A stretch of DNA of 64,000 bases from NCBI GenBank assembly GCA_036342255.1, contig JAZAUS010000002.1, forward strand, positions 6,334-70,333, given 5' to 3'. Shown here piece by piece: positions 4,069 through 59,190 of this stretch (position 1 is the first letter of the stretch; the number at the start of each line of letters is the position of its first letter). Below the pieces are notes generated by a model. That model did no database searches. It worked only from the letters and a program-made list of their open reading frames with translations, and was not told the origin of the DNA. Source of the stretch: Bacilli bacterium. Lineage in GTDB: Bacteria; Bacillota_I; Bacilli_A; RF39; UBA660. The position numbers and the translations under genes are program-made.

Positions 4069-4116
4069 TTTCTTTTTTTATTAAAGGAATTCTTTATTTA
4101 GAATTCCTTTAATATT

Positions 4117-5517: not shown

Positions 5518-5531
5518 AATATACTCCTATT

Positions 5532-6524
5532 TTATTCTTCATTTAAATTTTTCTTGCATATTTCAATTGTTTCATCCATTTTCCCCATGAAATATATTAG
5601 TAATCCTCTCATTGCTGTTAGTCTATTCTCTGCTTCATCAAAGCAAATTGATATTTTTTCATCATCCATTACTTCATCTGTTACTTCTTCTCCTCTTGTA
5701 GCAGGTAAGCAATGCATAAATTTTACATTTGGAGAACATTTTTTAATCATATCCATATTTACTTGATATTTTGGATAGAATATTTTCATTCTCTCTTCTT
5801 TTGGAAGTTCTGATTCATATAATCCATACCAAACATCAGTATAAATAAAATCAGCATCCTTTAAAGCTTCTTGTGGGTTATCTGTAATTAAATAACTTCC
5901 TCCACTTGCTTTACAATTTTCCTCAAGTATATCTACATACTCTCCTTTTAATTGGAAATCTTTTGGACCATAGTGAACGTAATGACCACCCATCTTGGTA
6001 ATCATCATACCTAAAGATGCACATACTTGAGTACAATCTCCTACAAATACAACTTTACATTCTTCAATTGTTTTGTTTTCTGGTAAGTGTTCAAACATTG
6101 TAATGATATCACCCATCTCTTGAGTAGGATGATTATAATCACTCATACCATTAAGTACAGGTACAGTAGAATATTTTGCTAATTCTACTACTGTTTTATG
6201 TTGTTGAACACGAGCCATTATCACATCTACAAGTCTTGACAAAACAATTGAAGTATCTTTCATACTTTCATGTTTACCAAGCTGTATTTGCCCCGGTGCC
6301 AAATATTGAGCATGTCCACCTAATTGAGTCATTGCTGTTTCAAAAGAAACACGAGTCCTAGTAGATGATTGCTCAAAAATCATACCTAATGTCTTATGAT
6401 ATAAAACATTAAGTGGATATCCTGCTTTAATATTCTTCTTAATAAGAAGACTTAAATTAACGATATCCAATAACTCTTCCTTAGTAAAATCTTGAGTCGT
6501 AATATAATCTTTTACTCTCATCAA
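5532..6524 (-). CDS. aguB: putrescine carbamoyltransferase
   Basis: 330 aa; STRTR carbamoyl-phosphate motif, HCLP motif, near full-length similarity to enterococcal putrescine carbamoyltransferase by recall. Confidence 0.9.
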
Positions 6525-6684: not shown

Positions 6685-8736
6685 CTATTTCGTATGTTTA
6701 TTATAATATTTATCATTAGCAATATACATTTCTATTTTTACACCAATTTTAACTACTAATTCATTTAATATCTCTTTTATTTTATTATTATAATCTTTAA
6801 TATTATTTATATCATTATCTTCTAAACTTTTTAATTGCTTATTGATTGTATTTATTATATCTTTTCGCATATTTTTTTTCTGTTCTTCATTTAAAACATT
6901 ATCTTCTATATAATTATTTAATTCCTTAACTGTAGATGTTATAGCCTTATTTTGATCATCTTCTTTTAATGTTACTCTTCCATTTAATTCAGTTATTTCC
7001 TTACTTTCAGTCAACTCTTTAATTATATTATCTTTATTACATTTTTCTAATAATGGATTTCCCGCTCCCAATAATTCATAATATTTTAATAATTTTAAAA
7101 CAAACTGTAATTCTTTTCTCAATTCTAATTCTTTATCATTATATTTATCTTTCTTTAAAGGCTTAACATCTTTCTCTTTTAAAATATTTTTTAAATCATT
7201 TTTATATTTATTTATACAATCATTAAACTTATCTTCTAAAATTTTTCTATATTCTACACTTGATAAAGATTTAATACTTATTTTAATACCCGTTAATAAT
7301 TCTCCAATTTCTGTTTCATTATTATTCCCTTCCAAAGAAGAAAGTAACAATTCATACGGCAATTCATTATAATAATACTTTGATATTTCATCATATAATT
7401 TTGATATTTCTAAATCAAAGTATACATCTATATCTAAATCACTATTAATATCTTCTTTATTATTTATAATAGCCTTAATACTTGAATTTATTTTTTTAAT
7501 AGCTGTATCAATAATAGTATTAAAATCTTTTTCATATTTCTTTTTTTTATCATCTGGCATACTATTTATCATATATATAATATTATTTATTTTAGAATCT
7601 ATAGAATCAGCATCTTTTATAAAATCAAGTTTATCTTGAGATAATAATTCTTTATAACTTTCTAATTTAACAATTTTATCATTAGACTTTAAATTAAAAA
7701 TAATAAACTCTAGATTGGTTAATAACTTAGATTTTATATAACCAATATCATTTTTCCCAAAAATAAAATCATTACTTTCCCCATATACTGGACTTGTTTC
7801 CTCTACAGCTTTATCATATTCTTTTAATAACGCATCTACTTTATCATGTATACTATTTTTGATATCATCAGATAAATTATTACATATTTCATCTATTTTA
7901 TATAACAAATCCTGTATATCTTTAGAATACTTATTAATATCTTTAATATTATTTCCTTTATTATCATCTTCAGTTGACTTTTCATCATCTAGCAACTCAA
8001 TATTCACTGATTGCAAAATATCTTCTAGCATTGATTCATACATAAAAGAATACAAATGAGATTTTTTAATATCTTCACTAAGAGGATAACCTATATTTAA
8101 CGATATTCCTGATAATATGCCTTTTTGACATATAAACAATTCTTTTTGTCTATCCATTAACCATTTTATAGGCTTTACTTCGAACCATATTCGACGTCTC
8201 TTAGTATCATTTAAAAAAACATATTTCCTACCATTATACTCATATTCATCAAAAGGAACAAATCCTTCATTTCGATCTTTCAAATGATAACTCTTACCTG
8301 TTTTTTTCATTTCATAAAATTTCTTATTCAATTCTTTTTGCATTTTAGAATCAACTAAATCTTGAGGATATTCTCCAAATTCTACTTCATAATATCCATC
8401 AATATAGTTAGCTTTTGGTAACAACTTCTCAAATAAAAGAGGATATTTTATGACTGGAAGTATAATTCCGTACCATTCAGGTAAAAGACATTTACCTTCT
8501 TTACCATTTTCATCAAAACACTTTACATAATACTTATCCCTACTACGCCAATGTTCTTCATAAATAGTACCCTGAGTATAGAATTCCGGATAATTATAAT
8601 TACTAAGATTTTTAGCTAAATCAGTACAATTAAAATTGTAACCAAATCTTTTTATTACTTCTAATATGTTATCTCCCCATACTTCTTCTGGAGAAAGTAT
8701 ACCAATTTCTATTGAATCTGAATACATATTTATCAC
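6685..8736 (-). CDS. paralog family member P1 (type-1 N-module, 683 aa), function unknown
   Basis: N-term M..IEIGILSPEEVWG, YYEVEFGEYPQ, YEYNGRKYV, WFEVKPIKW, conserved C-terminal core ending IYIANDKYYNKHTK; no signal peptide. Confidence 0.8.
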   Translation of the reverse strand: MINMYSDSIEIGILSPEEVWGDNILEVIKRFGYNFNCTDLAKNLSNYNYPEFYTQGTIYEEHWRSRDKYYVKCFDENGKEGKCLLPEWYGIILPVIKYPLLFEKLLPKANYIDGYYEVEFGEYPQDLVDSKMQKELNKKFYEMKKTGKSYHLKDRNEGFVPFDEYEYNGRKYVFLNDTKRRRIWFEVKPIKWLMDRQKELFICQKGILSGISLNIGYPLSEDIKKSHLYSFMYESMLEDILQSVNIELLDDEKSTEDDNKGNNIKDINKYSKDIQDLLYKIDEICNNLSDDIKNSIHDKVDALLKEYDKAVEETSPVYGESNDFIFGKNDIGYIKSKLLTNLEFIIFNLKSNDKIVKLESYKELLSQDKLDFIKDADSIDSKINNIIYMINSMPDDKKKKYEKDFNTIIDTAIKKINSSIKAIINNKEDINSDLDIDVYFDLEISKLYDEISKYYYNELPYELLLSSLEGNNNETEIGELLTGIKISIKSLSSVEYRKILEDKFNDCINKYKNDLKNILKEKDVKPLKKDKYNDKELELRKELQFVLKLLKYYELLGAGNPLLEKCNKDNIIKELTESKEITELNGRVTLKEDDQNKAITSTVKELNNYIEDNVLNEEQKKNMRKDIINTINKQLKSLEDNDINNIKDYNNKIKEILNELVVKIGVKIEMYIANDKYYNKHTK

Positions 8737-8776: not shown

Positions 8777-11083
8777 CTATTTCGTATGTTTATTATAATA
8801 TTTATCATTAGCAATATATATATCTATTTTTAAACCTACATCTACTATTAAGTCATGTAAAATATTTTTTAATTCTTTATTATATTCTTTAGCATTTTTT
8901 ATATCTTTTGTTGTTAAATTCTTTATTGATTCATCTATTCTATTTATTAAGTCATTTCGCATTTCATTTTTGATTTCTTCTTCTATTACATTATCTACTA
9001 TATAGTTATTTAATTCTATTACTGTTGATGTTATAGCTTTTGACTCATCTTCTTTAGATATATCTTTTTTTATTTTTCTATTAATTATATCTTTACTTTC
9101 TTCTAATTCTTTTAAAATACTATCTTTATTATACTTATTATTAGATTGTTCTTCTAACACTTCTAATATATCATATTTTTTGATTAATTTTGCTAATTCT
9201 TGGATTTCTTTTCTTATACTAATCTCTATTTCTTTAGAATTAGTTTTCTTTAACAAATCATTATTATTTAAAATATCTGTTATTAACTGTATATACTTCT
9301 CTTTAATATTATTAAATCTAGTTTCTATATCGTCTTTGTATTTTATATTATTTTCTTTTAATTCTTTTATTTTTTCTTCTATTAATTTTATTTCTTCGAT
9401 AAGATTTGAACTATTATTGTCTTCTTTATTTAAGGCGTTTAGTAGCTTTTCAAATGGTAATGCAGTATTACGATATGATAATATTTCATCATATAGTTTA
9501 GATATATTTAAATCTAGTTTTCTATCTATATTAGAATCTTTTGATAGTGATAAATCTGGTTTATCATTAGTTTCTTTTTCTAATTCTTTTGATAATTCAT
9601 TAATAGCGTCATCTATAAAACTAATTAATGATTTTTCAAATGTCTCTTTTTTTGAATTGCTCATTTCATTTAATATAAATATAATATTATTTATTTTAGC
9701 CTCTGTTGAATTATCATCATTAACTAGTATAGTTCCATTTTGAGATAATAATCTTTTATATTTACTTAATTTTTCTAATAATTTAATAGTCTTGTCTTCA
9801 TTTTTTAAGTTTAGTATTATTAATTCTAAATTAGATAATAATGATGTTTTTAAATAAGCAATATCTTTTTTATCTATATCTAATTCATAGATATTTCCAT
9901 ATTTTGGTTTAGCTTCTTTTAAATCATTATCATATTGATCTAGTAAACTATTTACTTCATCCATTATACTCTTTTTGGTATTATCTGGTAGATTATTACA
10001 AATATCATATATCTTATCTAATAATTCTTCTATATCATTAGAATATTTATTAATTCTAGTTGGATTATCTTTTACTTTATTAATATATGATAATATTATC
10101 TCTTTTGGTAATATATTCTTAATTGTATTCATCGCAACATCACTTAATTCAGGACCATCTAAAATTATTTGAGCTATTCCTGTAAAATCTTTTAATTCTT
10201 CAATTATTGCTTTTAATTCATAAATATTATTATACTTAATTGTTTTTGTTAATTTTGTTGATTGTAAGATATCTTTTAAAAAGTATTTTTTTAAAAATTG
10301 TTCTGTATCTTCTCTAGATGGTTTTATAGTATGTACTTTTACATAATAACGTATTTTTAGATATATTTCTTCATATTCTTTTTCTGTTTTACATATATTA
10401 TTAAATAATCCTAGTTTAGAATATAATACTCCATCTTCTATCTCCCATTTTATAGGTAATACTTTAAGCCAATATACTTCATTATTATTGTTTATGAAAC
10501 GAATATATTTTTCATTGTTATACTCATATTCTTCATAAGATTTATATGTAGTTTTACAATGTTTATTAACTACCCTTCCACTAACAATACCAAAATTATA
10601 TTGTTTTGGCTTTATTACAACCTTAGGTTCTTCTTTTATTATTGTTGATGGGATAGTATAAGTCTTTCCTGTTTTTTTAAATTCTTTACTATTAGAAGAA
10701 CCTCTTTGAATAAATAATTGTTCTAGTTTTTTTTGAGTATCTGGCTCTACTTTAGTTTGAGGATATTCACCTAACTCTATGGTTTTACTGCTACTATTAT
10801 TTTTTGTAATTTGAGATAACAATTCAGCATCTAATTCTATTTTAGGATATACTGCTTTATCAGGATATCCTAAATAATCCTTAGTACTATCTTTATTAAT
10901 AGCCATTAATAGTGTTAAATCAGTGGAAGTAAAGTTTCCTTTGGTTAAGTTAGATACGGGATAGCCCATTCGTATTAAATATTCTTCATCTGTTTCTTCA
11001 GCATATGGAGTATTATCATCATAATGACTACGACTTTTATAATTTGGAATTTGTAAATCATTTAAATAATCTATGCTTATCAT
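8777..11083 (-). CDS. paralog family member P2 (type-2 N-module, 768 aa)
   Basis: N-term IDYLNDL, IELGEYPQ, YEEYEYNNEKYIRF, WLKVLPIKW, ILDGPEL, shared C-terminal core; last about 14 aa and 3' DNA identical to P1. Confidence 0.8.
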   Translation of the reverse strand: MISIDYLNDLQIPNYKSRSHYDDNTPYAEETDEEYLIRMGYPVSNLTKGNFTSTDLTLLMAINKDSTKDYLGYPDKAVYPKIELDAELLSQITKNNSSSKTIELGEYPQTKVEPDTQKKLEQLFIQRGSSNSKEFKKTGKTYTIPSTIIKEEPKVVIKPKQYNFGIVSGRVVNKHCKTTYKSYEEYEYNNEKYIRFINNNNEVYWLKVLPIKWEIEDGVLYSKLGLFNNICKTEKEYEEIYLKIRYYVKVHTIKPSREDTEQFLKKYFLKDILQSTKLTKTIKYNNIYELKAIIEELKDFTGIAQIILDGPELSDVAMNTIKNILPKEIILSYINKVKDNPTRINKYSNDIEELLDKIYDICNNLPDNTKKSIMDEVNSLLDQYDNDLKEAKPKYGNIYELDIDKKDIAYLKTSLLSNLELIILNLKNEDKTIKLLEKLSKYKRLLSQNGTILVNDDNSTEAKINNIIFILNEMSNSKKETFEKSLISFIDDAINELSKELEKETNDKPDLSLSKDSNIDRKLDLNISKLYDEILSYRNTALPFEKLLNALNKEDNNSSNLIEEIKLIEEKIKELKENNIKYKDDIETRFNNIKEKYIQLITDILNNNDLLKKTNSKEIEISIRKEIQELAKLIKKYDILEVLEEQSNNKYNKDSILKELEESKDIINRKIKKDISKEDESKAITSTVIELNNYIVDNVIEEEIKNEMRNDLINRIDESIKNLTTKDIKNAKEYNKELKNILHDLIVDVGLKIDIYIANDKYYNKHTK

Positions 11084-11124: not shown

Positions 11125-13530
11125 TTATTTGGTATGTTTTTCATAATTAGATATTCTTTTATTATATATTTCCATTTCTAATTCTACATCTACTAAACTA
11201 TATAATATTTTTCTTAGTTCTTGATTATAATCTTTTAAATTATTTATTTCTTTTTTATTTAAATCTTCAATTGATTCATCAATTTTCTTAATTATAAGAT
11301 TCCTTATCATATCTCTAGTGTCTTTATCAGGTATTTTTTTATATAAATAATTATTCATTTCAGTAATAGTAGATGTAATTGCTTTTAATTCAATATCTTT
11401 TGTTATTTTAACAGTTTCTTTATTGTTTATTATTTGTTTACTTTCTTCTAATTGATTTAATAAATCTTCTTTATCATATTTTTTTGTTTTTAATGAATCC
11501 ATAATATTATATTGTTTTATCATAATTAATAATTCTTGTATTTCTTTTATAAGTTTAGTTTCTATTTTTTCATATTTAGTATTATTTAATAAATCTTTAT
11601 TACCTATGATATTTTTTAGCATATTAATATATTTTGCCTTTATAGAATTAAATTTATTATTAATATCTTCTTTATAATTATTATTTGATAAATTATTAAC
11701 TATTTCTTCAATTAAATTTAATTCTTCAATTATATCTGATGAAGTATTAGTATTCTTCTCTAAAGCATTTAGTAATTTTACAAATGGTATTATCTTATTA
11801 TAAGATAAAGATACTTCATCATATAATTTAGAGATATTTAAATCTAATTTTTTATCTATATCAAAACCATTGTTATAAGATAAATCTGGTTTAAAATCTA
11901 TACCTTTTTCTAATTCTTTTGATACTCCCCTAGTAGCATCATCTAAATATTTTATTAGTTCTTCTCTATATGATTCTTTATTATTATTTATTTCATTTAT
12001 CATAAATATAATATTATTAATTTTAGCATATATAGAACTATCATCTTTTATTAATTCTTTTGGACTTGTAGATAATATTTTTTTATAATTACTTAATTTT
12101 TCCATATAGTTAATAGCTTTATCTTCACTTGTTAGCTGCAATAGTATTAATTCTAATTCATTTAATAATAATGGTTTTAGTAAATCAATATCTTTTTCAC
12201 CAAGATTAAAGTCATTGCTAGAGCCAAATTCTGGTTTAGCCTCTTTTAGATCTTTTTTATATTGTTTTAGTAATTTACTAACCTTATCTGTTATACTTTT
12301 TTTAGTATTATCTGGTAAATTATTACTAATGTTATATATCTTATCTAATAAGTCTTGTATATCTTCAGAAAAGTCACCATTTTTGAAAGATAGTTCTATT
12401 AATGGGGAAATTAACCTTTTAATTTTTTTTATTTCACTGCTAGTTAGTTCAGGACCATCTAATATAAGTTTAGTTATCCTTTTTGTATCATCATAAATTT
12501 TAACTCTATCATATTCTTTTGTATTTTGTTGGAAAATATTATGCATTATATCTGTATTATTCTTTTTTTTATCCTTATGTGCTTGATCTTTATTACCATT
12601 CAAAATACTTTTTAATTCATTAAAATTAGTATATTTTATAACTTTTGTTAAATTAACAGATTGGAGAATATCTTTTAAAAAATTATTTTCTAGGAAATTA
12701 CTAGTTTTATAATCTGATATTTCTATGAAACTCCAAGGCTTTTTTTTCCACCAATTTTCATAATAATAATCTTTTTCATAATAAGGTACATCACGATTCA
12801 TAACTTCATATGCATATCTACTTATATTTCGATCTTCATTTCCTAAAAAACTATTAAATAGTCCTAATTTTGAATATAAGATTCCATTTTCAACTTCCCA
12901 TTTTATTGGTAAAACTTTTAACCATATTACTTCATTAGATTTTCCTTTTCTATTATCAACAAAACGTATATACTTATTACCTTTATATTCATATTCGTTA
13001 TATTTTGTTACTCTATCCTTACTTTCCCTATTTTGAAATCTATATTTACCATAATATGCATCTGAGGGCTCTGATTTAATTATTGGTGTTGTTTCTATAG
13101 TATATGTATGTCCAGTTAGTTTTAGTTTTTGATAAGCAGATGCTTTGGAATTATTATAGAATGAACTGGCAGTTTTATATAATTGTTCTAGTTCTTGCCC
13201 AACTACTGGGTCAGCCTTAGTTTGAGGATATTCACCAAATTCTATTATATTATCATCACTATATTCATCAATAAGTGATAATAAAATATCTTTGGGTAAT
13301 AATAATTTAGGATATACTATTTCGTTTATTGATCCATATCTAAAAACAGGAATAAATCTGGCCATGTAATAATCATAACTTGTTAATTCAGCTAAATCAG
13401 TTTTATTAAAAGATTCTTCTTCTAAGCATGATGTAGGATATCCTAATGTTTTTATACTCTTATAATCAAGAAGTCTATCAGTTGATATTTTATCTAGATT
13501 AGGACAATAATCTATTTCAATGTGTTCCAT
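11125..13530 (-). CDS. paralog family member P3 (type-2, 801 aa)
   Basis: IEFGEYPQ, YNEYEYKGNKYIRF, WLKVLPIKW, FLKDILQSV, ILDGPEL, NISKLYDEV, KAITSTITEMNNYL. Confidence 0.8.
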   Translation of the reverse strand: MEHIEIDYCPNLDKISTDRLLDYKSIKTLGYPTSCLEEESFNKTDLAELTSYDYYMARFIPVFRYGSINEIVYPKLLLPKDILLSLIDEYSDDNIIEFGEYPQTKADPVVGQELEQLYKTASSFYNNSKASAYQKLKLTGHTYTIETTPIIKSEPSDAYYGKYRFQNRESKDRVTKYNEYEYKGNKYIRFVDNRKGKSNEVIWLKVLPIKWEVENGILYSKLGLFNSFLGNEDRNISRYAYEVMNRDVPYYEKDYYYENWWKKKPWSFIEISDYKTSNFLENNFLKDILQSVNLTKVIKYTNFNELKSILNGNKDQAHKDKKKNNTDIMHNIFQQNTKEYDRVKIYDDTKRITKLILDGPELTSSEIKKIKRLISPLIELSFKNGDFSEDIQDLLDKIYNISNNLPDNTKKSITDKVSKLLKQYKKDLKEAKPEFGSSNDFNLGEKDIDLLKPLLLNELELILLQLTSEDKAINYMEKLSNYKKILSTSPKELIKDDSSIYAKINNIIFMINEINNNKESYREELIKYLDDATRGVSKELEKGIDFKPDLSYNNGFDIDKKLDLNISKLYDEVSLSYNKIIPFVKLLNALEKNTNTSSDIIEELNLIEEIVNNLSNNNYKEDINNKFNSIKAKYINMLKNIIGNKDLLNNTKYEKIETKLIKEIQELLIMIKQYNIMDSLKTKKYDKEDLLNQLEESKQIINNKETVKITKDIELKAITSTITEMNNYLYKKIPDKDTRDMIRNLIIKKIDESIEDLNKKEINNLKDYNQELRKILYSLVDVELEMEIYNKRISNYEKHTK

Positions 13531-13558
13531 ATTTGCCTCCTAATAATTCTTATTATGT

Positions 13559-16500
13559 TCATTTAATAATCTTCTTATATGTTTTCAAATCATATATATA
13601 TATTTCTATTTGTAATCTTACATCCATTAATTTACCTAATACTTCATATAAGTATTTATTATAATCTTTATAATTATTAATTTGAATATCATTTAATTCT
13701 ATTATTTCATTATCAATAATTTCATTTAGTAAATCTTTTACTTCTCTTATAGTATTAATATCAGATATATTATCTATAAGATAATTATATGTTTCTATAA
13801 CAGTAGATGTTATAGCCTTTAATTCATCATAATTAGATAAGTGAGCATCTTCTTTGTTAATTATATCTTTACTTTCTTTTAATTGTTCTAATAAATTATC
13901 TTTAGTATATTTTAGATGAGATTTTATATTTATACTTTCTAAGACATTATATTTTTTTATTAGTTTTAATAAATCTTGTAAATCATTTTTAAGATTTTTT
14001 TCTATTTCATCATATTTTGTTTTATTTAATGATTTGCTATCATTTAAAAGACTTTCTAATATACAAATATTTTCTGCTATTAAAGTATTAAATCTGTTTT
14101 CTATTTCATCTTTATAATCGCTATTATTTTCTATTAATACTTTAATAACCTCTTCTATACCAGATATTATATTAGTTATGTCTATATTGGTACTACCATT
14201 ATTATTTATAAGTGAATTAAGTAACTTTTCAAATGGTACATTTTTTTCATAATAGGTTAAAACTTTATCATATAATTTAGATATGTTTAATTTGAATGTT
14301 TTATCAACATCAAAATTTTTTGGTAATGATATGTCAGGTTTATCATCAATACCTTCTTCTAATAATTTAGATAACTCTTTAATACTATTATCAATAATTG
14401 TATTTAATTCATTCAAATATAATTGTTTCTTATCATCATTCATTTCATTTGTCATAAATATAATATTATTAATCTTAGTTTCTATAGAGTCATTATCTTT
14501 AATAAATTGGGTATTGTTTTGAGATATTATTTTTTTATAATTACTTAATTCTTCTAAGAATTTAATAGTTTTATCTTCATTAGTTAGATTTATATTTATT
14601 ATTTCTAATTTAGATAATAATGATGGTTTTAAAGAATAAATATCATCTTGTCCTATAACAAGTTCATTAGTATGATTAAATTTAGGTTTTAATTTTTGAA
14701 TACCATTATCATATTGCTTTAATAATTCTTTTACTTGATCTGTTATTTTTTTCTTAGCATTATTTGGCAAACCATCACAGATACTATTTATTTTATCTAA
14801 TAAATTTTGAATATCTTTTGGATATTCTTTTGTTTGTTCTTCTTCTATTACAGTTTTCATTTTTTCTTTTTCAATTGAGAAACTATTAATAAACATTTTA
14901 TTATTTAAAAAGGTATATATTCCACTATCAATAAATATAGATTTTTCATTTTTAATCATAGTCATTAATAATACATCTTTACTAATTAGCAAATCATTTT
15001 TTTCATCTATTAACCAAGTAATACCTTTGACTTTATACCATATTTTAACACTTCCTTTTTGTTGAACATAAACATATTTTTCCCCATTATATTCATATTC
15101 ATAGCATTTTTCTTTTAGAGAACTATCTAATTGATATATTCTCCCCGTTTTCTTTAACTCATTATTCTTAAAAAGAAAATCTAAATGATTCATTAAATAT
15201 ACTTCTACTTCTTCTTGAGGATATTCACCAAACTCCACTTCGTAATAATAACCCTGACGAGATGCATTTGGTAATAATTTCTTAACAAGATTTTTTGATT
15301 TTATAACTGGTAATAATTCAATAGAAGAATATTGGTTAAAATATAAATTATTGTTTTTCTGATCTAAAGCCTTAAATATCACTCCATTGTTGTCCATAAA
15401 CCATTTAGAAAACAAGCAATTGTTAAATTCCCCTTTTCTAGGGCTTAAAAGAATAGGATAACTATCAAGAATACTGTTTCTAAAAGTTAAATATATTTTC
15501 TTTGCAAAATCTGTCACATGAATAGGATTATGTCTCAAATCATACATATTTTTTAATGTTTTTTCAATATAATCTGGTGATAATAAAGTTAACTCCATAT
15601 CATTATTGATTCTAAATACTAAATTAGATATTTCTTCAGAAAACATGCCATTAATTAATACATCTAAATCTTTACTATTTCCATATATTATTTCAGCTTT
15701 TGGAGAAAAGAAATGTTTTATAGATTCTAATTCACTTTTATTTAATTCTGGTCCATCTAAAATTATCTTTGATGCTTTATTATAAGTACTAATTCCCCCA
15801 TTATTTTTAATAATAGTATTTAATTCTTTAAAGTTATTATATTTTATAGCCTTAGATAATTTTACTGTTTGTAATATATCTTTTAAAAAATGATCTTCTA
15901 AAAAATTAATAGTTTCTTCTTTTGATGGTTGTAGTCTACTTATTTTACTTAAACCTTTTTTATTTTTATTAATGTCTTCTGTTATAAATAAATTATTAAA
16001 GACACCAATTCTAGAATATAAGTATCCATCTTGATAATCCCATTTTATAGGAGAAACTTTAAACCAATTAACTATAGGTAATAAACTATATTCATCATCA
16101 ACATAACGAATATATTTTTCATTATTAACTTTAAATTCAATACAATTCTTAGCAAATACTCTTCCTTGCATATGAATAACATTAGATTTTTCTCCATTAG
16201 GTAATTTAATAGTCTTCTCTTTCTCTTGAGTAATAATATTATTTGGTATTGTATAAGAATTACCAGTTACCTTTAAAGCATCACTTTTAGTCCTATATAA
16301 ACGTTCTAAATATAAATAGGTTGTTTCATCAACTCCATTTTGAGGATACTCACCAAATTCGATAGTTGAAATTTTAGCATCTTTATTTGAAATAAAAGAC
16401 ATTACTTCATCTGGTAATTTAATTCTTGGATATACTATAGCATTAGATAAATGATCGGGATATTTTGAAGAAATACAGCATGTCAAATCTGCCAAATCAG

Positions 16501-16594
16501 TTGTTTCAAAAGCATATTTTATTCTATCATTATCAGATGCATGTATGGAATCACGCTCTAAATCAGTCAAATAATCTATTTTCATTTTGTCCAT
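13559..16594 (-). CDS. paralog family member P4 (1011 aa, chimeric: type-2 N-module followed by a second type-1 N-module, then common core)
   Basis: two EFGEYPQ / EYEYNGEKY / W-KV-PIKW modules in one ORF (IEFGEYPQNGV... and YYYEVEFGEYPQEEV...), then YPKDIQNLLDKI core. Confidence 0.8.
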   Translation of the reverse strand: MDKMKIDYLTDLERDSIHASDNDRIKYAFETTDLADLTCCISSKYPDHLSNAIVYPRIKLPDEVMSFISNKDAKISTIEFGEYPQNGVDETTYLYLERLYRTKSDALKVTGNSYTIPNNIITQEKEKTIKLPNGEKSNVIHMQGRVFAKNCIEFKVNNEKYIRYVDDEYSLLPIVNWFKVSPIKWDYQDGYLYSRIGVFNNLFITEDINKNKKGLSKISRLQPSKEETINFLEDHFLKDILQTVKLSKAIKYNNFKELNTIIKNNGGISTYNKASKIILDGPELNKSELESIKHFFSPKAEIIYGNSKDLDVLINGMFSEEISNLVFRINNDMELTLLSPDYIEKTLKNMYDLRHNPIHVTDFAKKIYLTFRNSILDSYPILLSPRKGEFNNCLFSKWFMDNNGVIFKALDQKNNNLYFNQYSSIELLPVIKSKNLVKKLLPNASRQGYYYEVEFGEYPQEEVEVYLMNHLDFLFKNNELKKTGRIYQLDSSLKEKCYEYEYNGEKYVYVQQKGSVKIWYKVKGITWLIDEKNDLLISKDVLLMTMIKNEKSIFIDSGIYTFLNNKMFINSFSIEKEKMKTVIEEEQTKEYPKDIQNLLDKINSICDGLPNNAKKKITDQVKELLKQYDNGIQKLKPKFNHTNELVIGQDDIYSLKPSLLSKLEIININLTNEDKTIKFLEELSNYKKIISQNNTQFIKDNDSIETKINNIIFMTNEMNDDKKQLYLNELNTIIDNSIKELSKLLEEGIDDKPDISLPKNFDVDKTFKLNISKLYDKVLTYYEKNVPFEKLLNSLINNNGSTNIDITNIISGIEEVIKVLIENNSDYKDEIENRFNTLIAENICILESLLNDSKSLNKTKYDEIEKNLKNDLQDLLKLIKKYNVLESINIKSHLKYTKDNLLEQLKESKDIINKEDAHLSNYDELKAITSTVIETYNYLIDNISDINTIREVKDLLNEIIDNEIIELNDIQINNYKDYNKYLYEVLGKLMDVRLQIEIYIYDLKTYKKIIK

Positions 16595-16618
16595 ATTATC
16601 AACCTTTCAACTTATTAT

Positions 16619-17044
16619 TTATACTCTTTTATTTGTATTCTTTTTACCAAAAATATTTGTATTAATAAATATAAATATATTTGATATTAATATTATTGTA
16701 TCTATTAACAATCCAGCAAAAGAGAATACATGTATACTATATATAACCCTAGCTGTATATGAAATAATAGCTCCTATTGTTACATATTTCTTCTCTAGAG
16801 TTAGACTATAACCATCTACTAAACTAGCAAATATTGGTAAGTAATCATACCAATTTCTTACACATAATAAGCTTATGGATATATATAATATAGCGCTAAC
16901 TATAAATATATATTTATCTTTATCTGTTTTATAATATAAGAAATCTCTTGTTCCTTCAAGTAAATATGTACAAGCACCACTATAAGCACCTAATAAAATA
17001 TAATGAATAAAATCTAATGCTCCTGATATAATATGAAAAGACAA
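16619..17044 (-). CDS. small polytopic membrane protein inside the array; TTG start, possible 5' frameshifted extension to 17136
   Basis: 141-aa hydrophobic ORF; overlapping ATG-initiated 40-aa hydrophobic ORF (17014..17136) in another frame suggests frameshift or sequencing error. Confidence 0.4.
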   Translation of the reverse strand: MSFHIISGALDFIHYILLGAYSGACTYLLEGTRDFLYYKTDKDKYIFIVSAILYISISLLCVRNWYDYLPIFASLVDGYSLTLEKKYVTIGAIISYTARVIYSIHVFSFAGLLIDTIILISNIFIFINTNIFGKKNTNKRV

Positions 17045-17183
17045 TCTTTATTAGTATCTTTTCTAAAATAACTTAGTATTAAAAATAATCCTGCTAATAA
17101 ACCTATAAACTGTATTATTAAAAATTTTATTTCCATATTGTATCCCTTATTCTATTAATTATTTATTTTATAAATATTTTAAG

Positions 17184-19322
17184 CTATCTAGTACGTTCAT
17201 TATATTCTTTAACTTTTTTTAAATACATATCCATATGTATTCTTACATTCATTATTTCTTTCAAAATTTCAAATACTATTTTACTATATTCTTCATAATT
17301 TTTAATTTTTATATTATTATTGTCTATTTTATAATTATATTTATCTAGTATCTTTTTTAAATCATCAAATATTTCCTTCTTTATTTCTTCATCTATTTCA
17401 CTATCTAATAAATCATTGTTTAATTCTGCAATTGTAGATTCAATAATATCATTACTATTTTCATAGGGAACATCACATTTTTCATAGCCTTCTATTATTT
17501 TTTTACAAAGGCATAATTGGTTACCTAATTCATAATTATAATTCATATACTTTTTAGGGGTTAAAGGAGTTAATACTTCTAATAAATTATATTTCTTTAT
17601 TAATAGTAATAATTCTTGTAATTCTCTTCTAAAATTTACTTCTATTTTTTCATAGTTAGAATTTTTTAACAGTTCATCATTATTAATAATATTTTTAATC
17701 ATATTAATGTATTTAATTATAATATTATTTTTTTTTCTTTTTATTTCTTCTTTTTGTTCTTTATCAGTTAATTCAGATGTTATTTTATTAATTCCTGTTA
17801 ATAGTTCATCTATTTCTGAAAGATTATCTTTTCCTTCTAATGAAGATAATAGTTTTTCAAAAGGTATTGCCTTTTCATGATATAATGATACATTATCATA
17901 TAATTTAGATATATTTAATTTAAGTTGCATATCAGCATCAAATCTTGGAGGAAAGGCATCTGGTTTATCATCTATACCTTTTTCTAACTCTTTTGATACT
18001 TCTTTAATAGCTTCATCTATATATTTAACTAATTCATTTTCAAAAAAATCTTTCTTATTACTAGTTATATCGTTTATCATTACTATAATATTATTAATCT
18101 GACTATCTATAGAATCATCATTTCTTATTAGTTCTTTAGGATTTGTAAATAATAATCTTTTATAGTCACTTAACTTTGATAATAAATTAATGGCTTTTTT
18201 TTCGCTTGTTAGTTTCATAACTATCATTTCTAATTCAACTAATAGTGTAGATTTTATCATACTAATATCTTTTTTATCAATATCAAATTCATCATTAAGA
18301 CTGTATTTTGGTTTAGAATCTTCTAAATCTTTATCATAATCACTTAATAATTTATCTACTTTGTCTAAGATAGGTTTTCTTGCATTATCTGGTAAATTAT
18401 CAACTATATTATTTATTTTATCTAATAATTCTTGTATATCTTGAGGATATTTGCCATATTTTTGTTTTTTTACTGACTGTAAAATATCTTTAACCATATA
18501 CTTATTCATAAATCTATATAGAGAAGAATCTTCAAATCTATAATTGCTACCATGACTTCCAGGACCATCATAACAAAATCGATTAGCAAGAGGTATACCT
18601 GATAGTATTCCATTTTTACATATAAACAATTCTCTTTCTGGATCAATAATCCACTTTAATGGTTGGACCTCATACCAAACCTTTTTAGTTTTACTTTTAT
18701 TTAAATAGTTCATACTGGCGATGGGAGCATTTTCTACATCTACACAAACATATCTTTTACCATTATATTCATATTCATCATATGCTATAACATTATCATC
18801 ACTAAACTTTTCTTCATTTTTTTCATCATCATCTTTCAAATAATATTTTCTATCAGTTTTATTTAATTGATCAAATGATAACATTCTAGTTAATTCTATT
18901 TGTAAATCAGTGCTTGCCATATTTTGAGGATACTCTCCAAATTCTACTTCTAATATGCCATTATTTTTATTTCCTTTAGGAAATAAATATTTAAATAAAG
19001 ATGATGATTTTATAACTGGAAGTATAATTCCATTGGACAAGCATCTATCTAATTCCCCCTTCTTACCATTTTCTAAAATAGTACTATAACTTACCTTAAT
19101 ATAATCAAAATTATTAGATGTCAATATCATATAAGGATACTTTCTATTTGATAAAGCTTTGGCTAAATCAGAACTTGGAATTTTAGAATGAGTCTTTTTA
19201 AGCTTTTCTATGTATTCATGAAATGTTTCTATTCTTCTATACTGAGAAAAAACTTCTTTTCTTTGATTTAATCCCCAAACATCATATGGTGAAAGTATAA
19301 TCATTTCAACATCATTAAACAT
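17184..19322 (-). CDS. paralog family member P5 (type-1, 712 aa)
   Basis: N-term VEMIILSPYDVWG, LEVEFGEYPQ, YDEYEYNGKRYV, WYEVQPLKW, YPQDIQELLDKI core. Confidence 0.8.
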   Translation of the reverse strand: MFNDVEMIILSPYDVWGLNQRKEVFSQYRRIETFHEYIEKLKKTHSKIPSSDLAKALSNRKYPYMILTSNNFDYIKVSYSTILENGKKGELDRCLSNGIILPVIKSSSLFKYLFPKGNKNNGILEVEFGEYPQNMASTDLQIELTRMLSFDQLNKTDRKYYLKDDDEKNEEKFSDDNVIAYDEYEYNGKRYVCVDVENAPIASMNYLNKSKTKKVWYEVQPLKWIIDPERELFICKNGILSGIPLANRFCYDGPGSHGSNYRFEDSSLYRFMNKYMVKDILQSVKKQKYGKYPQDIQELLDKINNIVDNLPDNARKPILDKVDKLLSDYDKDLEDSKPKYSLNDEFDIDKKDISMIKSTLLVELEMIVMKLTSEKKAINLLSKLSDYKRLLFTNPKELIRNDDSIDSQINNIIVMINDITSNKKDFFENELVKYIDEAIKEVSKELEKGIDDKPDAFPPRFDADMQLKLNISKLYDNVSLYHEKAIPFEKLLSSLEGKDNLSEIDELLTGINKITSELTDKEQKEEIKRKKNNIIIKYINMIKNIINNDELLKNSNYEKIEVNFRRELQELLLLIKKYNLLEVLTPLTPKKYMNYNYELGNQLCLCKKIIEGYEKCDVPYENSNDIIESTIAELNNDLLDSEIDEEIKKEIFDDLKKILDKYNYKIDNNNIKIKNYEEYSKIVFEILKEIMNVRIHMDMYLKKVKEYNERTR

Positions 19323-19340
19323 ATTATCACTCCTCGTATA

Positions 19341-21443
19341 TTATCTTGTATATTCTTTCCATTCTTTCATATTAGCTATATAATTATTTATTTCTATCTT
19401 TATTCCCATTATATCACTTAGAATCTTTTTTAACTCTTCCATATATTCTTTTGGATTATTTATATCAGTTTTTTCAAGTTCTAATTCTTTTTTGTCTATA
19501 ATACTAACTAAATCATGTTTTATTTCTTTTTTAGTATCATTATCTATTACACTATTAATTAAATGATTATTAATATCTATAATTGTAGAAGTAATAGATT
19601 GTAATTCAATCTCATTAGTTATTTCAACTACTTTATTACCTAATATTATTTGTTTGCTATCTTGTAATTCTTTAATTAGATTATTTTTACTATAATTTTT
19701 AGGTTTACATAATTCTAATATATTATATTTTTTTATTAATAATAATAATTCTTGTAATTCTTTTCGTAAATTATTCTCTATCTTTTCATACTTAGTATTT
19801 TTAATTAGTTCATCATTACCTATAATATTATTAATCATAGATATATAATTAGTTTTAATATCATTAAACTTAGTTTCTAATTCTTCTTTATACTCTTTAT
19901 TAGGAAATTCTGAAATAATCTTTTTTATATCTAATATCATTTTTCCTATTTCTGAATCATTATTACTATCTGTTTCAAATGCTTTAATTATCTTTTCATA
20001 TGGTATAACTTTATCATAATAAAAAGAAACATCGTCATATAACTTAGATATATTTAATTCTAATTTTTTATCTGCACCAAACCATTCTTTGATAGATATA
20101 TCTGGTTTATTATCTATACCTCTTTCTAATTCTTTAGATACCTCTTTAATAGCATTAGATATATACTTAATTAAATCATTTCTAAATAATTCTTTTTTAC
20201 TATTACTAATTTCATTTATCATAAATATAATATTATTAATTTTACTATCTAAAGAATCATCACCTTTTATTAGGTCTTTAGGATTTGTAGATAATAACTT
20301 CTTATAATCACTTAGTTTTGATAAAAACTTAATAGCTTTTTCCTCACTTGTTAAACTTATAATTATCATATCTAATTCTGTAATTAAATTTGTTTGTAAA
20401 AATTTAACATTTTTTAATTCTATTATTAATTCATGTTTAGGATTAAACATTGGTTTTGTCTGTTCAACATCTTTATCATATTCAATTAATAATTTATCTA
20501 CTTCCATCATAATAGAACTTTTTACATCATCTGGTAACTTACTACATACTTTAATTATTTCATTTATTTTTTCTTGTACTTCTTTAGGATATTTACTATA
20601 ATTTCTTGCTGGTTCAGATGATAATGATTTATCTTCTTCTAAAGAAACTGTTTGCATGATATCTTTTAACATACATCTAGTTATAAAATGATAAATCGCA
20701 GTATTTGAGTATTTAATCGTTCTCGCATACTTTTCATTTATTTTAGGTGCATAATATTTTATATTAGATAAAAGAGCTTTTTCACATACAAAACATTTTC
20801 TTTTCTCATCAACTAACCACTTTATTGGTTTTACCTCAAACCATCTATTTTTTTTATTACTTACATAATATCCAACTCTTTTAGGATTTGATTTTTCTTC
20901 TGGAATACAAATATACTTTTTTCCATTATATTCATACTCATCGTATGCTATTCTAGTTGCACTCCAATCTGTATTCCAACCTCCTTCCCATTCTTCAGTT
21001 ATATAATATCTTCTTCCAGTTTTATGTAATTGGTTAAGTGATAATTTATTATCTAGTTGTCTTTGCTCTACACTACTTACTTTTTCTTGAGGATATTCTC
21101 CAAATTCTACTTCATAGTAACCTTTCCAAACAGCTTTAGGAAATAATTGTTTAAATAACTCTTCTGAAGTAATAACAGGAAGTATTGCTCCATCCAAGTC
21201 ATAATGTGTAAATTCTTTTTCTCCATTTGGTAAAATGGAAACACCCATTAAATAATCTGAATAATAAGGATTGCCTTGAATTTCGGTACCACTTGTATGT
21301 ATGATTAGTGGTTCTTTCCCAGTATAAAGCTCCTGTGCTAAATCAGTACAAGAAAAACTTGTACCATATTCTTTTAAAACATCTAATTTATCTTCTCCCC
21401 AAACATCTTCTGGAGATAATAAAGATATTTCTACATTTTTCAT
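19341..21443 (-). CDS. paralog family member P6 (type-1, 700 aa)
   Basis: N-term VEISLLSPEDVWG, YYEVEFGEYPQ, YDEYEYNGKKYI, WFEVKPIKW, ITSTIIDINNHL. Confidence 0.8.
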   Translation of the reverse strand: MKNVEISLLSPEDVWGEDKLDVLKEYGTSFSCTDLAQELYTGKEPLIIHTSGTEIQGNPYYSDYLMGVSILPNGEKEFTHYDLDGAILPVITSEELFKQLFPKAVWKGYYEVEFGEYPQEKVSSVEQRQLDNKLSLNQLHKTGRRYYITEEWEGGWNTDWSATRIAYDEYEYNGKKYICIPEEKSNPKRVGYYVSNKKNRWFEVKPIKWLVDEKRKCFVCEKALLSNIKYYAPKINEKYARTIKYSNTAIYHFITRCMLKDIMQTVSLEEDKSLSSEPARNYSKYPKEVQEKINEIIKVCSKLPDDVKSSIMMEVDKLLIEYDKDVEQTKPMFNPKHELIIELKNVKFLQTNLITELDMIIISLTSEEKAIKFLSKLSDYKKLLSTNPKDLIKGDDSLDSKINNIIFMINEISNSKKELFRNDLIKYISNAIKEVSKELERGIDNKPDISIKEWFGADKKLELNISKLYDDVSFYYDKVIPYEKIIKAFETDSNNDSEIGKMILDIKKIISEFPNKEYKEELETKFNDIKTNYISMINNIIGNDELIKNTKYEKIENNLRKELQELLLLIKKYNILELCKPKNYSKNNLIKELQDSKQIILGNKVVEITNEIELQSITSTIIDINNHLINSVIDNDTKKEIKHDLVSIIDKKELELEKTDINNPKEYMEELKKILSDIMGIKIEINNYIANMKEWKEYTR

Positions 21444-23828: not shown

Positions 23829-24578
23829 TTACTTTATTCCTTTTTTCTTGTTTAAATATTCATATATACATTTTTCTCTTTTTAAATCGTTATTTTTAAC
23901 ATTAGTATTAGGTAACATTTGATAATCACTAGCAACATATGGTGTACTCTTCTTTTTAAAAAATACTGTCTCTACAGTTGAATAATTTGTTCCATCAAAT
24001 CCAAATCCTTCAGATACTTCTTTAAAACCTAAACTATGATATAAGTTTTTAGCTCTTAAATTATGCATTAAGCAATCAAATCCTATTTCATCGAATCCTT
24101 CTTCATGCATTTGTTCAATAAAGTATTTCAAAAGCCTTTTACCTATACTTTTACCACGTAAATTAGTATCAATACATATATTGGTTAAATACATATATTT
24201 TTTCTCAACGACTTCATCTATTAATACTTTTAAATAATTATCTACTGTAAATTTATAATTATCATTTACATTAATTAAGTTAGTATAATCATAATCTAGA
24301 TTTGTAGTTGTATCAATAGCTCCACATATTCCTATTATTTTTTTATTTTCTTTATCATATGCAACATAAAAGTTTTCATAATGAAATATAAATCCTTCTT
24401 CATGCATTAATGGAACTAACACCTTTATAGCTTCATCCAAATTATTATTAAACCAAAAAGGATATATATATGGATCTGTATCATATATTAATCTAGCTAT
24501 CTCACTAAAATCATCATCTATAGTAGCCCTTCTCAATATTATATCATCAAAATTTATTTCATAACTTTTCTTACTCAT
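23829..24578 (-). CDS. GNAT-family N-acetyltransferase embedded in the paralog array
   Basis: 249 aa; acetyl-CoA binding-like motif NLRGKSIGKRLL (R/Q-x-x-G-x-G/A) in translation. Confidence 0.6.
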   Translation of the reverse strand: MSKKSYEINFDDIILRRATIDDDFSEIARLIYDTDPYIYPFWFNNNLDEAIKVLVPLMHEEGFIFHYENFYVAYDKENKKIIGICGAIDTTTNLDYDYTNLINVNDNYKFTVDNYLKVLIDEVVEKKYMYLTNICIDTNLRGKSIGKRLLKYFIEQMHEEGFDEIGFDCLMHNLRAKNLYHSLGFKEVSEGFGFDGTNYSTVETVFFKKKSTPYVASDYQMLPNTNVKNNDLKREKCIYEYLNKKKGIK

Positions 24579-30488: not shown

Positions 30489-30555
30489 ACTATCTCCCTC
30501 TATTTTCTTTATTTAATTATATCATTATAATATATATAAATCAATTATTTAGAGA

Positions 30556-30587
30556 TATAAAAAAGAGTATTAAATATTTAATACTCT
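30556..30587 (-). terminator. rho-independent terminator after carbamate kinase
   Basis: perfect hairpin agagtattaaa/tttaatactct (30564..30587) preceded on + strand by A-run (T-run on minus). Confidence 0.6.
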
Positions 30588-30588
30588 G

Positions 30589-56886: not shown

Positions 56887-56973
56887 AACCTTGAACCCTC
56901 CTTGAATTTCGGTTTTATATAATAGCACTAAAAACATGGTTTGTCAAGTATTTTTTTACTTTTTGTTAATTTT

Positions 56974-59164: not shown

Positions 59165-59190
59165 ATAAGGTTCTTTTTAATTGGTTACAT
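59165..59190. terminator. bidirectional rho-independent terminator between clpB and the deacetylase gene
   Basis: hairpin aagaacc-aataa-ggttctt flanked by A-run and T-run. Confidence 0.6.

Follow-up and report, generated by a model that had tools for sequence, protein, structure and literature searches.

Probable ancient module exchange and gene fusion in a tandem array of eight two-part paralogs from a Bacilli bacterium

The window, i.e. the whole 64,000-nucleotide stretch of DNA that was analysed, holds eight full-length genes of one protein family, arranged as tandem minus-strand paralogs over ~20 kb (6685-26752) of a gut Bacilli genome of about 22% GC. We consider it probable that the array as a whole is explained by an old tandem expansion, ancient exchange between its members and, separately, a deletion that fused two genes to give the double-module protein P4. 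All eight ORFs were present as previously described and are intact, each with its own ribosome-binding site. P1 (6685..8736; 683 aa, or 680 aa from the annotated start), P5 (17184..19322; 712 aa) and P6 (19341..21443; 700 aa) consist of a type-1 (T1) N-module and a C-terminal core; in P1 the N-module spans 7933-8736 (T1N HMM, 387 bits) and the helical core 6685-7932 (CORE HMM, 534 bits). P2 (8777..11083; 768 aa), P3 (11125..13530; 801 aa), P7 (21476..23809; 777 aa, or 770 aa from the probable true start at M8) and P8 (24617..26752; 711 aa) carry a type-2 (T2) N-module, which in P8 has a short leader, and an ILD adaptor before the core; N-module plus adaptor and core lie at 10049-11083 and 8777-10048 in P2 and at 12376-13530 and 11125-12375 in P3. 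P7 and P1 probably begin a few codons further downstream than their first ATG/GTG. P4 (13559-16594; 1011 aa, a 3036-nt ORF) contains a T2 module, an adaptor, a complete T1 module and a core. The array is flanked by potD and a gene for putrescine carbamoyltransferase. Two non-members on the same strand interrupt the array: a GNAT acetyltransferase gene between P8 and P7 (23829..24578; Pfam Acetyltransf_1, E 2e-12) and a ygjV-like membrane protein gene (PF10688) between P5 and P4 (16619..17136), which is split over two frames. Pfam, NCBIfam and PADLOC scans of the eight family proteins returned nothing meaningful.

The division into two N-module subtypes proposed in the earlier note was borne out, as the motifs it quoted are present. 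T1 modules start with ..(I/V)E(I/M).(I/L)LSP(E/Y)(E/D)VWG and later contain (Y/L)EVEFGEYPQ, and the T2 proteins P2, P3, P7 and P8 contain IDY(L/C).(D/N)L, VYPK(I/L) and IE(F/L)GEYPQ, together with a segment bearing ILDGPEL (IVFCGPKL in P8). This additional T2 segment, previously put at about 100 aa, is in fact about 65-90 aa long. The two types are homologous over ~175 aa (hhalign 99.9%, E 6e-35, 172 columns); their leaders fail to align. T1 has its own leader of ~95 aa and joins the core directly, whereas the leader of T2 is shorter and of another kind, and T2 is linked to the core via the ILD adaptor. Residues E-G-YPQ, T, E, Y, W, V, W and F are invariant across the nine modules. N domains of one type are 36-48% identical to each other and those of different types 24-32%, and the core, which had been described as constant, is only 39-52% identical between paralogs whatever their type. 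The contrast between a variable N-terminal and a constant C-terminal part therefore holds only between subtypes; within a subtype the N-module is about as conserved as the core.

The core comprises ~420 C-terminal aa common to all eight paralogs, and neither this helical domain nor the ~60-aa 'GPxL' adaptor was matched by any Pfam or NCBIfam model. AlphaFold2 modeled P1 aa 1-268 with a pLDDT of 88.5 and a pTM of 0.85. In the model of P4 the core is predicted to be all-helical, and pLDDT exceeds 90 over aa ~430-550; the T2 and ILD part of that model has low confidence and was built essentially without an alignment, because the P4-centred MAFFT alignment placed the T2 modules onto the T1 module of P4. 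When the full P4 model was compared with the PDB by Foldseek, the only matches were weak ones to vinculin- or talin-like helical structures, and none reached E <= 0.001.

Separate trees for N-modules and cores disagreed. These were neighbour-joining (NJ) trees on corrected p-distances of highly diverged, compositionally biased proteins, and several inner nodes had less than 60% support. In the N-module tree the window T1 modules formed a clade (88%), as did the T2 modules together with five outside proteins (86%), some of which have T2 modules attached to other C-termini. In the core tree the eight window cores were monophyletic with respect to 23 outside cores (99.5%); T1-type and T2-type cores each formed a clade in 0% of bootstraps, and the supported pairs were P4+P8 (81%) and P5+P6 (89.5%). 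We also ranked the T1/T2 labelling among the 35 possible 4+4 splits of the family: it came first for the N domain (+15.1 identity points) and 23rd for the core (-0.4). The split between T1 and T2 is thus strong in the N domain and absent from the core, and this incongruence of the sequences indicates that some recombination happened, either as module replacement or as gene conversion of cores.

Core similarity partly tracks adjacency. When the core was divided into segments, P1+P2 grouped in the last 90 aa (93%) and P5+P6+P7 in the middle third (84%), i.e. in both cases adjacent genes; P2 and P1 are 62% identical over the last 90 aa and 78% identical over the 3' 281 nt. The window cores share one ancestor and the N-types predate the expansion, which calls for one or more N-module replacements or for homogenisation of cores between neighbours; these data do not discriminate between replacement and gene conversion of the cores. 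A colinear blastn match of 2291 nt between P2-P1 and P7-P6 was considered as proof that a gene pair had been duplicated as a unit and was rejected, since any two homologous genes only 30-40 nt apart would give a colinear alignment, and the pairs are not reflected in the core trees.

P4 is the double-module chimera that the earlier note had described. Its T2 module occupies aa 1-249 (15848..16594, minus strand; T2N HMM, 328 bits) and its ILD adaptor, which contains KIILDGPELNKSELESIKHFF, aa 250-316 (15647..15847; ILD HMM, 87 bits at aa 250-314). Exactly between the ILD segment and the T1 module lies MFSEEISNLVFRIN (aa 317-330; 15605..15646), which aligns with core starts such as DFSEDIQDLLDKIYN and appears to be all that is left of a T2 gene's core, namely its first ~14 residues; the fusion junction is at the 3' end of this remnant. 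Of 15,960 null positions in the other ORFs of the window, only 1 equalled the remnant's PSSM score of 6.0 bits. The complete T1 module follows (aa 331-589; 14828..15604; T1N HMM, 307 bits at aa 331-576), and then the helical core (aa 590-1011; 13559..14827; CORE HMM, 566 bits). The T1 part opens with INNDMELTLLSP, the counterpart of the P5 start MFNDVEMIILSP, with the former ATG now ATC; no ribosome-binding site was found upstream of it in the junction DNA. From aa 331 to 1008, P4 aligns with essentially the whole of P5 (aa 3-709) at 35% identity (blastp, E 1e-126). Together with the module HMM scores this makes the second module a complete homologous module, not unrelated low-complexity sequence.

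These features of the junction are better explained by one in-frame deletion that fused a T2 gene with the next T1 gene than by the domain swapping previously suggested for P4; such a fusion would be the simplest origin, and the T2-then-T1 adjacency that it needs occurs twice in the present array (P7-P6 and P2-P1). In the N-module tree the T2 module of P4 fell within the window T2 group (54.5%) inside the wider T2 clade, and its T1 module was an outlier of the T1 clade, P1+P5+P6 grouping without it at 72%. When the P4 core was analysed by thirds, P4+P8 led the groupings that include P4 in the first third (45%) and in the last (73%), and no grouping stood out in the middle (P2+P4, 32%).

The array contains little that would point to recent exchange. 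In a DNA self-comparison the homologous paralogs did align, but the best identity was only 73% over ~1 kb, with the best shorter tract at 78% over 281 nt, and no pair of genes exceeded about 80% identity in any tract of at least 25 nt. Synonymous sites are saturated, at 65-73% identity. Judged from these sequences, all exchange among the paralogs is ancient and recent exchange is absent. The array held no flanking repeats and no donor or expression copies with near-identical tracts, the 64-kb window no silent or truncated cassettes or other module fragments, and positions 6000-27500 no near-identical direct repeat pair of the template/variable type. No inverted repeats of note were found; those detected are 25-47 nt long, 72-85% complementary and AT-rich, consistent with chance. 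The ORFs scanned beside the array and most of the larger window ORFs encode metabolic, transport and housekeeping proteins, and no recombinase or reverse-transcriptase (RVT) domain was found among them. The claim of recombination-driven domain swapping therefore stands in part: some recombination did occur, as the N/core incongruence and the shuffled modules in public data indicate, but a working diversification mechanism is not apparent. The array looks like the product of ordinary duplication, old recombination and deletion rather than an active diversity-generating device.

Several other explanations of the array were weighed against this one. If T1 and T2 had separated at the first duplication and only diverged vertically since, with a core tree left unresolved or distorted by saturation or composition, then no exchange at all would be needed; the narrow range of core identities is what such a history would give, and many inner nodes are poorly supported in trees that are NJ only. 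We nevertheless judge it improbable, because mixed-type core pairs are supported (P4+P8, and P1+P2 in the last 90 aa) while type-congruent clades are not, because the type signal in the N domain vanishes in the core, and because the T2 clade takes in outside proteins with other C-termini even though the window cores are monophyletic. At the opposite extreme, an active cassette-type device, antigenic or phase-variation-like, could currently be swapping N-terminal recognition modules onto a constant core. Same-strand tandem paralogs with short spacers, incongruent histories and one chimeric member would all fit such a device, which is however already largely refuted, and in our view highly improbable, given the low nucleotide identities, the lack of cassettes, fragments and meaningful inverted repeats in the window, the lack of recombinase and reverse-transcriptase domains among the scanned ORFs, the eight intact genes with their own ribosome-binding sites and the identity of the locus in another assembly, seen in two samples.

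The origin of P4 admits two further readings. A P8-like T2 gene may have received a copy of the 5' segment of a T1 gene (the module and some core) by insertion or conversion, with an illegitimate left junction at about core codon 14 and a homologous right junction inside the core. That the P4 core is sister to the core of T2-type P8 fits this, and counts to that extent against our main explanation, as does the brevity of the core-start remnant (14 residues); the outlying position of the P4 T1 module fits it too. However, as T1-type cores do not form a clade, the P4+P8 pairing is silent on which type of gene donated the core. Insertion also requires two junctions instead of one when the substrate for a one-step deletion is at hand twice in the array, and no switch of nearest relative was detected along the P4 core, so that we regard it as rather unlikely. 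We give very little credence to P4 being a non-functional accident, i.e. an assembly chimera or a decaying fused gene. Both of its modules do deviate at well-conserved motifs (IEFKVNN for YEEYEYN and KVKGITW for KV.PIKW), and LKDILQSV has been lost from the T1 part. Against this, the ORF is intact behind a ribosome-binding site, both modules retain every residue invariant across the nine modules, the HMM scores are high and proteins with double or triple T1 modules or with T1+LRR+ILD+core are known in other organisms. The junction is not an assembly artefact either, since window positions 11996-20238 recur unchanged (0 mismatches in 8243 nt) in an independent Logan assembly that was seen in two samples, and the array contains no repeat of more than about 80% identity by which an assembler could be misled.

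For the preferred explanation, that of old expansion, ancient exchange and a separate fusion, we infer the following order of events. T1 and T2 would be anciently separated versions of one homologous domain, older than the expansion, and the eight cores would descend from one recent ancestor. A soluble two-part protein, i.e. an N-module followed by the all-helical domain of ~420 aa, would have undergone an old, lineage-specific tandem expansion. Long ago there would have been at least one N-module replacement, or gene conversion of cores between neighbouring genes. Separately, one in-frame deletion would have removed the core of a T2 gene past its first ~14 codons, the spacer and the start codon of the downstream T1 gene, giving P4.

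The modules also occur outside the window in other combinations. At E <= 1e-3 the family profile matched 1458 representative proteins, the majority via the N-module, which forms a large family in gut-derived Bacilli/Mycoplasmatota-type MAGs. Elsewhere T1 is found alone, in double or triple tandem, or, most often, fused to MoxR-type AAA_5 ATPases; such a T1-AAA_5 gene was found to be followed by a small ORF and by a DUF2201_N/DUF2201 gene (DUF2201 is a vWA-like domain that accompanies a putative metallopeptidase domain), and T1-ATPase genes also form tandem arrays. One T1-AAA_5 example adjoins conjugation-type and recombinase genes. The core was found with LRR_5 repeats and ILD, with T1, or as T1+LRR+ILD+core (P0060), and T2+ILD with other C-termini (e.g. 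P0062 and P0066). The ILD segment of P4 is homologous to the segment that precedes the core in LRR_5-core proteins (hhalign 97.2%, E 2.8e-11). From their arrangement in these sequences, N-modules, ILD adaptor and core are independently mobile units that recombine with other domains. A first protein search with P4 as the query missed most paralogs. In a word-indexed search of proteins that used the core alignment, low-complexity candidates crowded out everything but P8, and pattern scans of GTDB genome contigs and JGI metagenome contigs found no relatives of the core.

The N-module is apparently a remote, permuted relative of DUF6273 (PF19789; gathering score 23.5 bits). None of the eight proteins, nor the P1 module, matched DUF6273 at E <= 1, and the domain was reached only by remote relatives (P0190 at 24.6 bits; 6 of 62 T1 relatives at E <= 0.05). 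On the DUF6273 profile, positions 54-171 are covered by the leader of T1-type modules and positions 20-68 by their C-terminal part, so the order of elements is permuted or register-shifted. A C-type-lectin-like fold has been reported for DUF6273 models (PMC10743442). The N-module is beta-rich and probably ligand-binding. Its description as a recognition part would follow from this remote similarity and from its interchangeability with LRR_5 repeats. The eight proteins lack transmembrane segments and signal peptides: their maximum 19-residue hydropathy is at most 1.35, and their maximum N-terminal 12-residue hydropathy is at most 1.18, compared with 3.17 in the PotD lipoprotein encoded next to the array. 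Our best guess is that the array supplies the cytoplasm with a repertoire of binding or sensor modules, all mounted on the same helical scaffold or effector. A bolder proposal, to which we attach only a slim chance, is a cytoplasmic pattern-recognition repertoire of a previously undescribed kind, in which interchangeable front ends detect invader or host molecules and the fold-orphan helical core is, via ILD, a shared oligomerising effector or scaffold. If so, P4 would be a dual-specificity sensor, and the same front end on MoxR-type ATPases near conjugation-type genes would mark a conflict-system sensor domain.

As a case of how families of multidomain paralogs arise by duplication, ancient exchange between neighbours and gene fusion, the array is clean but ordinary; the probable fusion in P4 still shows its scar in the 14-residue core remnant and the dead start codon. 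What emerged along the way is more useful than the shuffling itself: with definitions of the helical domain, the adaptor and the N-module family, curators could annotate many 'hypothetical proteins' from uncultured gut Bacilli, and these definitions offer a starting point for asking what the putative cytoplasmic binding modules recognise.

Recombining multigene families for surface variation are known from Mycoplasma, Borrelia and pilin-type cassette systems. The window array resembles them in that its paralogs stand in tandem and have mosaic histories, and in that the bacterium is host-associated and of low GC. It differs from them in lacking near-identical tracts, silent cassettes, a recombinase, signal peptides and lipoboxes, and in that all of its copies are full-length with their own translation signals. 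Unlike diversity-generating retroelements, it has no near-identical repeat pair within 6000-27500 and no RVT domain among the scanned ORFs. Pairs of MoxR-type AAA+ ATPases and vWA proteins (Kaur et al. 2020, PMC7159879) are resembled by the outside T1 relatives that carry an AAA_5 (MoxR-like) ATPase with a DUF2201 neighbour, whereas domain scans found no ATPase in the window family, which has no vWA partner and carries the helical core in their stead. The comparison with BspA-type LRR_5 proteins concerns the front end of the family. Typical BspA-like proteins are secreted or surface proteins, unlike the eight window proteins, which have no signal peptides and no LRR_5 matches in a Pfam scan. 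In other organisms, however, LRR_5-like repeats (identified by eye) fill the place of T2 upstream of ILD and core, and because both sit upstream of the same adaptor and helical core, LRR repeats and the N-module appear to be interchangeable front ends.

The earlier note had recognised two N-module subtypes and one double-module member in this tandem family of eight paralogs (P1 to P8), and this was borne out by module HMMs and by an alignment in which P4 was entered as two of nine rows. The eight long ORFs lie on the minus strand at 6685-26752, in a window of very low GC content (about 20-30%). Proteins P1 (6685-8736, 683 aa), P5 (17184-19322, 712 aa) and P6 (19341-21443, 700 aa) have a type-1 (T1) N-module followed directly by a core, a C-terminal all-helical domain of ~420 aa. 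In P2 (8777-11083, 768 aa), P3 (11125-13530, 801 aa), P7 (21476-23809, 777 aa) and P8 (24617-26752, 711 aa) a type-2 (T2) N-module is followed by a 65-90-aa segment containing ILDGPEL (the ILD segment) and then the core. P4 (13559-16594, 1011 aa; VZS44_01295 in public records) contains a T2 module (aa 1-249, HMM 328 bits), ILD (aa 250-314, 87 bits), a complete T1 module (aa 331-576, 307 bits) and a core (aa 590-1011, 566 bits). That this second module is complete, as had been proposed, was confirmed by the match of P4 aa 331-1008 to nearly the whole of P5 (blastp, 35% identity, E 1e-126), and both P4 modules retain all of the residues that are invariant across the nine modules. Profile-profile comparison aligned T1 with T2 over 172 columns (99.9% probability, E 6e-35), from VYPK/ILPV via EFGEYPQ, KTG..Y, YEYNGKKY and W.KV.PIKW to FLKDILQSV, while the leaders 5' of VYPK/ILPV did not align; T1 and T2 are versions of one domain.

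Along the direction of transcription the array reads P8 (T2), a GNAT gene, P7 (T2), P6 (T1), P5 (T1), a ygjV-like gene, P4 (T2+T1), P3 (T2), P2 (T2) and P1 (T1). Both interrupting genes are unrelated to the family: the first (23829-24578) encodes a GNAT acetyltransferase and the second (16619-17136, minus strand; PF10688) a membrane protein split over two frames, as a 40-aa and a 141-aa ORF. An independent public assembly (a Logan contig) has the same sequence here, and the ygjV-like gene is probably a frameshifted pseudogene or a sequencing error. The motif (g/t)tgataa(a)t stands directly 5' of the ATG in P1, P4, P5 and P6 (starts at 8727, 16594, 19322 and 21443), taking the ATG at codon 4 (8727) as the P1 start; in P7 a better ribosome-binding site precedes the second ATG (M8), and the lengths in the public annotation (P1 680 aa, P7 770 aa) agree with these downstream starts. 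No other ORF of at least 50 aa in the 64-kb window contains a family module. The array is flanked on one side by agmatine/putrescine catabolism genes (2944-6524: agmatine deiminase (PAD_porph), an amino-acid permease and an ornithine/putrescine carbamoyltransferase-like gene) and on the other by potABCD-type transporter genes and carbamate kinase (26781-31530). Because 20 kb of array divides this functionally coherent neighbourhood, the layout suggests either expansion of the array within an agmatine/putrescine energy-metabolism locus or its insertion there. Further out, a 528-aa ORF (1341-2927, minus strand) has a C-terminal serpin domain (Pfam Serpin, E 7e-46, best stretch aa 325-517); serpins are uncommon in bacteria and occur mainly in host-associated ones. 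Two more minus-strand genes (55072-56937 and 59177-60607) encode a SpaA-type prealbumin-fold repeat protein and a polysaccharide deacetylase that carries bacterial Ig-like domains. Such domains are typical of Gram-positive surface or cell-wall proteins, which makes a cell wall probable in this organism, though related MAGs carry Tenericutes or Mycoplasmatota labels.

An assembly artefact at P4 was ruled out by the Logan contig, which was seen in two samples and matches window 11996-20238 without a single mismatch over 8243 nt; an array-wide search also found no repeat above about 80% identity. The junction within P4 is informative about its origin. Between ILD and the T1 module, exactly where a core should begin, sits MFSEEISNLVFRIN, which aligns with the core starts of the other genes, e.g. 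DFSEDIQDLLDKIYN in P3. Scored with a PSSM of the core starts of the other seven genes, this site reaches 6.0 bits, a value equalled at only 1 of 15,960 positions when window ORFs unrelated to the family are scored. The residues after this remnant, INNDMELTLLSP, match the N-termini of T1 genes (MFNDVEMIILSP in P5 and MYMNNDMELTLL in the outside protein P0004), with ATC at the position of the T1 start codon, and the internal T1 part has no ribosome-binding site 5' of it, although one is present at all eight genuine starts. A single in-frame deletion that fused two genes is the simplest reading; it would have removed the core of a T2 gene after about 14 codons together with the 30-40-nt spacer and the start codon of the downstream T1 gene. 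The substrate needed, a T2 gene with a T1 gene next in line, is present twice in the array. Alternatively, the 5' segment of a T1 gene could have been inserted into a P8-like T2 gene, as the pairing of the P4 and P8 cores would favor (81% bootstrap in the core tree), but this requires two junctions where the deletion fusion requires one.

We built neighbour-joining bootstrap trees separately for the N-module and core partitions, and the two histories disagree. N domains share 36-48% identity when they are of one type and 24-32% when they are of different types, and the T1/T2 division ranks first among the 35 possible 4+4 splits (+15.1 identity points, within minus between); in the N-module tree a T2 clade, to which five outside proteins belong, has 86% support and a window T1 clade 88%. 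Core identity (39-52%) is independent of N-type, and here the same division ranks only 23rd of 35 (-0.4). The eight window cores are monophyletic with respect to 23 outside cores (99.5%), yet neither the T1-type nor the T2-type cores ever form a clade (0% each). Instead P5 pairs with P6 (89.5%), the three adjacent genes P5, P6 and P7 group in the middle third of the core (84%), and P1 groups with P2 over the last 90 aa (93%). P1 and P2 are adjacent and differ in N-type; identity over these last 90 aa is 62%, and no long tract in the array matches better than their 3' 281 nt (78% identity). Core relationships thus partly track physical adjacency and disregard N-type, a reading based on distance trees whose sequences are saturated and biased in composition. 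It requires either that N-modules were replaced on a core that had expanded recently or that neighbouring genes underwent gene conversion in their cores, and these data do not tell the two apart.

The exchange between paralogs is old: no gene pair exceeds 73% nucleotide identity over ~1 kb. The array contains no cassettes or significant inverted repeats, no recombinase or reverse transcriptase was found among the window ORFs scanned, and there is no sign of a diversification device working today. The idea of recombination-driven domain swapping thus holds as far as a modular family with a recombinant history is concerned; that history is ancient, P4 is best read as a deletion fusion, and an active mechanism is not part of the picture. 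The case is of modest interest as evolution and offers somewhat more through three domain families of uncultured gut Bacilli that had not been described before.

A search of 1.84 billion representative proteins with the family profile gave 1458 matches (E <= 1e-3) in two independent classes, N-module matches and core matches. The T1 module is widespread: some proteins (about 300 aa) consist of it alone, others have two or three copies in tandem, and others again (about 630 aa) join it to an AAA_5 (MoxR-type) ATPase. At three outside loci (L002 8001-11911, L003 8001-14456 and L004) the fusion gene lies upstream of a ~130-aa ORF and a DUF2201_N/DUF2201 gene. L002 has a conjugation-type setting with PrgI, VirB4/TraG-like, CHAP, reverse-transcriptase and serine-recombinase genes; L003 and L004 lie directly 3' of a ribosomal protein/rpoA operon and have a second T1 gene (650 aa) between the ATPase gene and the ~130-aa ORF. 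GTDB species representatives encode T1 at 181 loci. Of these, 76 distinct loci were retrieved, most of them belonging to MAGs of gut 'Bacilli', 'Tenericutes' or 'Mycoplasmatota'; tandem arrays of three to six T1 genes are frequent among them, and the core and T2 are absent from all 76. Because such arrays occur in other gut Bacilli/Tenericutes MAGs (L009 4322-18618, L013 3502-12970, L007 7650-11098, L008 and L019), with up to six consecutive ~630-aa genes (the ATPase-fusion size) or three ~366-aa genes, paralog arrays are a general habit of T1 beyond the window family. The T2+ILD unit is rare and is also seen with other C-termini, e.g. pentapeptide-repeat-like tails in P0062 and P0066. The core is rare too, and pattern scans of genome and metagenome contigs found no relatives of it; outside cores mostly follow BspA-type LRR_5-like repeats (judged by eye) and an ILD-homologous segment (hhalign 97.2%, E 2.8e-11, for ILD against the pre-core segment), and P0060 combines T1, LRR, ILD and core in 1219 aa. 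Since T1, T2+ILD and core combine variously in other organisms, the double front end of P4 is one case of a general combinatorial habit.

The eight proteins gave no match in scans against Pfam, NCBIfam and PADLOC. They all lack signal peptides and TM segments, in contrast to the neighbouring PotD lipoprotein, and the fusion of T1 to ATPases elsewhere argues that this module can work in the cytoplasm. In the AF2 model of P4 (pLDDT 68.6) the core is all-helical (pLDDT roughly 75-90), and it matched nothing in the PDB better than weak vinculin- or talin-like bundles. Its C-terminal end, approximately (E/Y)Y(N/K).(H/Y/I)(T/S/I)(K/R), is shared by most of the superfamily (YNKHTK, YEKHTK, YKKIIK, YNERTR, YNEHIR and YNQYSK among P1 to P8 and outside cores such as P0032, P0033, P0038 and P0041) and might be an interaction or export signal. 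Our best guess is that the array supplies a set of cytoplasmic binding modules built on a common helical scaffold; a new family of intracellular sensors is an unsupported possibility, which we regard as improbable. A comparison with a known domain comes from the T1-type modules of four outside proteins (P0025, P0008, P0190 and P0193), whose leader (..LLS.EE..WW.RS..RP.L) corresponds to positions 54-171 of Pfam DUF6273 and whose C-terminal PIKW..FLN part corresponds to positions 20-68, with a ~100-aa EFGEYPQ..YEYNGKKY beta segment between them, so that the T1-type module looks circularly permuted or register-shifted relative to DUF6273. Because DUF6273 has been modelled as a C-type-lectin-like domain, which is DGR-diversified in phage receptor-binding proteins (PMC10743442), and because the N-modules are interchangeable with LRR repeats, a role of these modules in binding or recognition is plausible.
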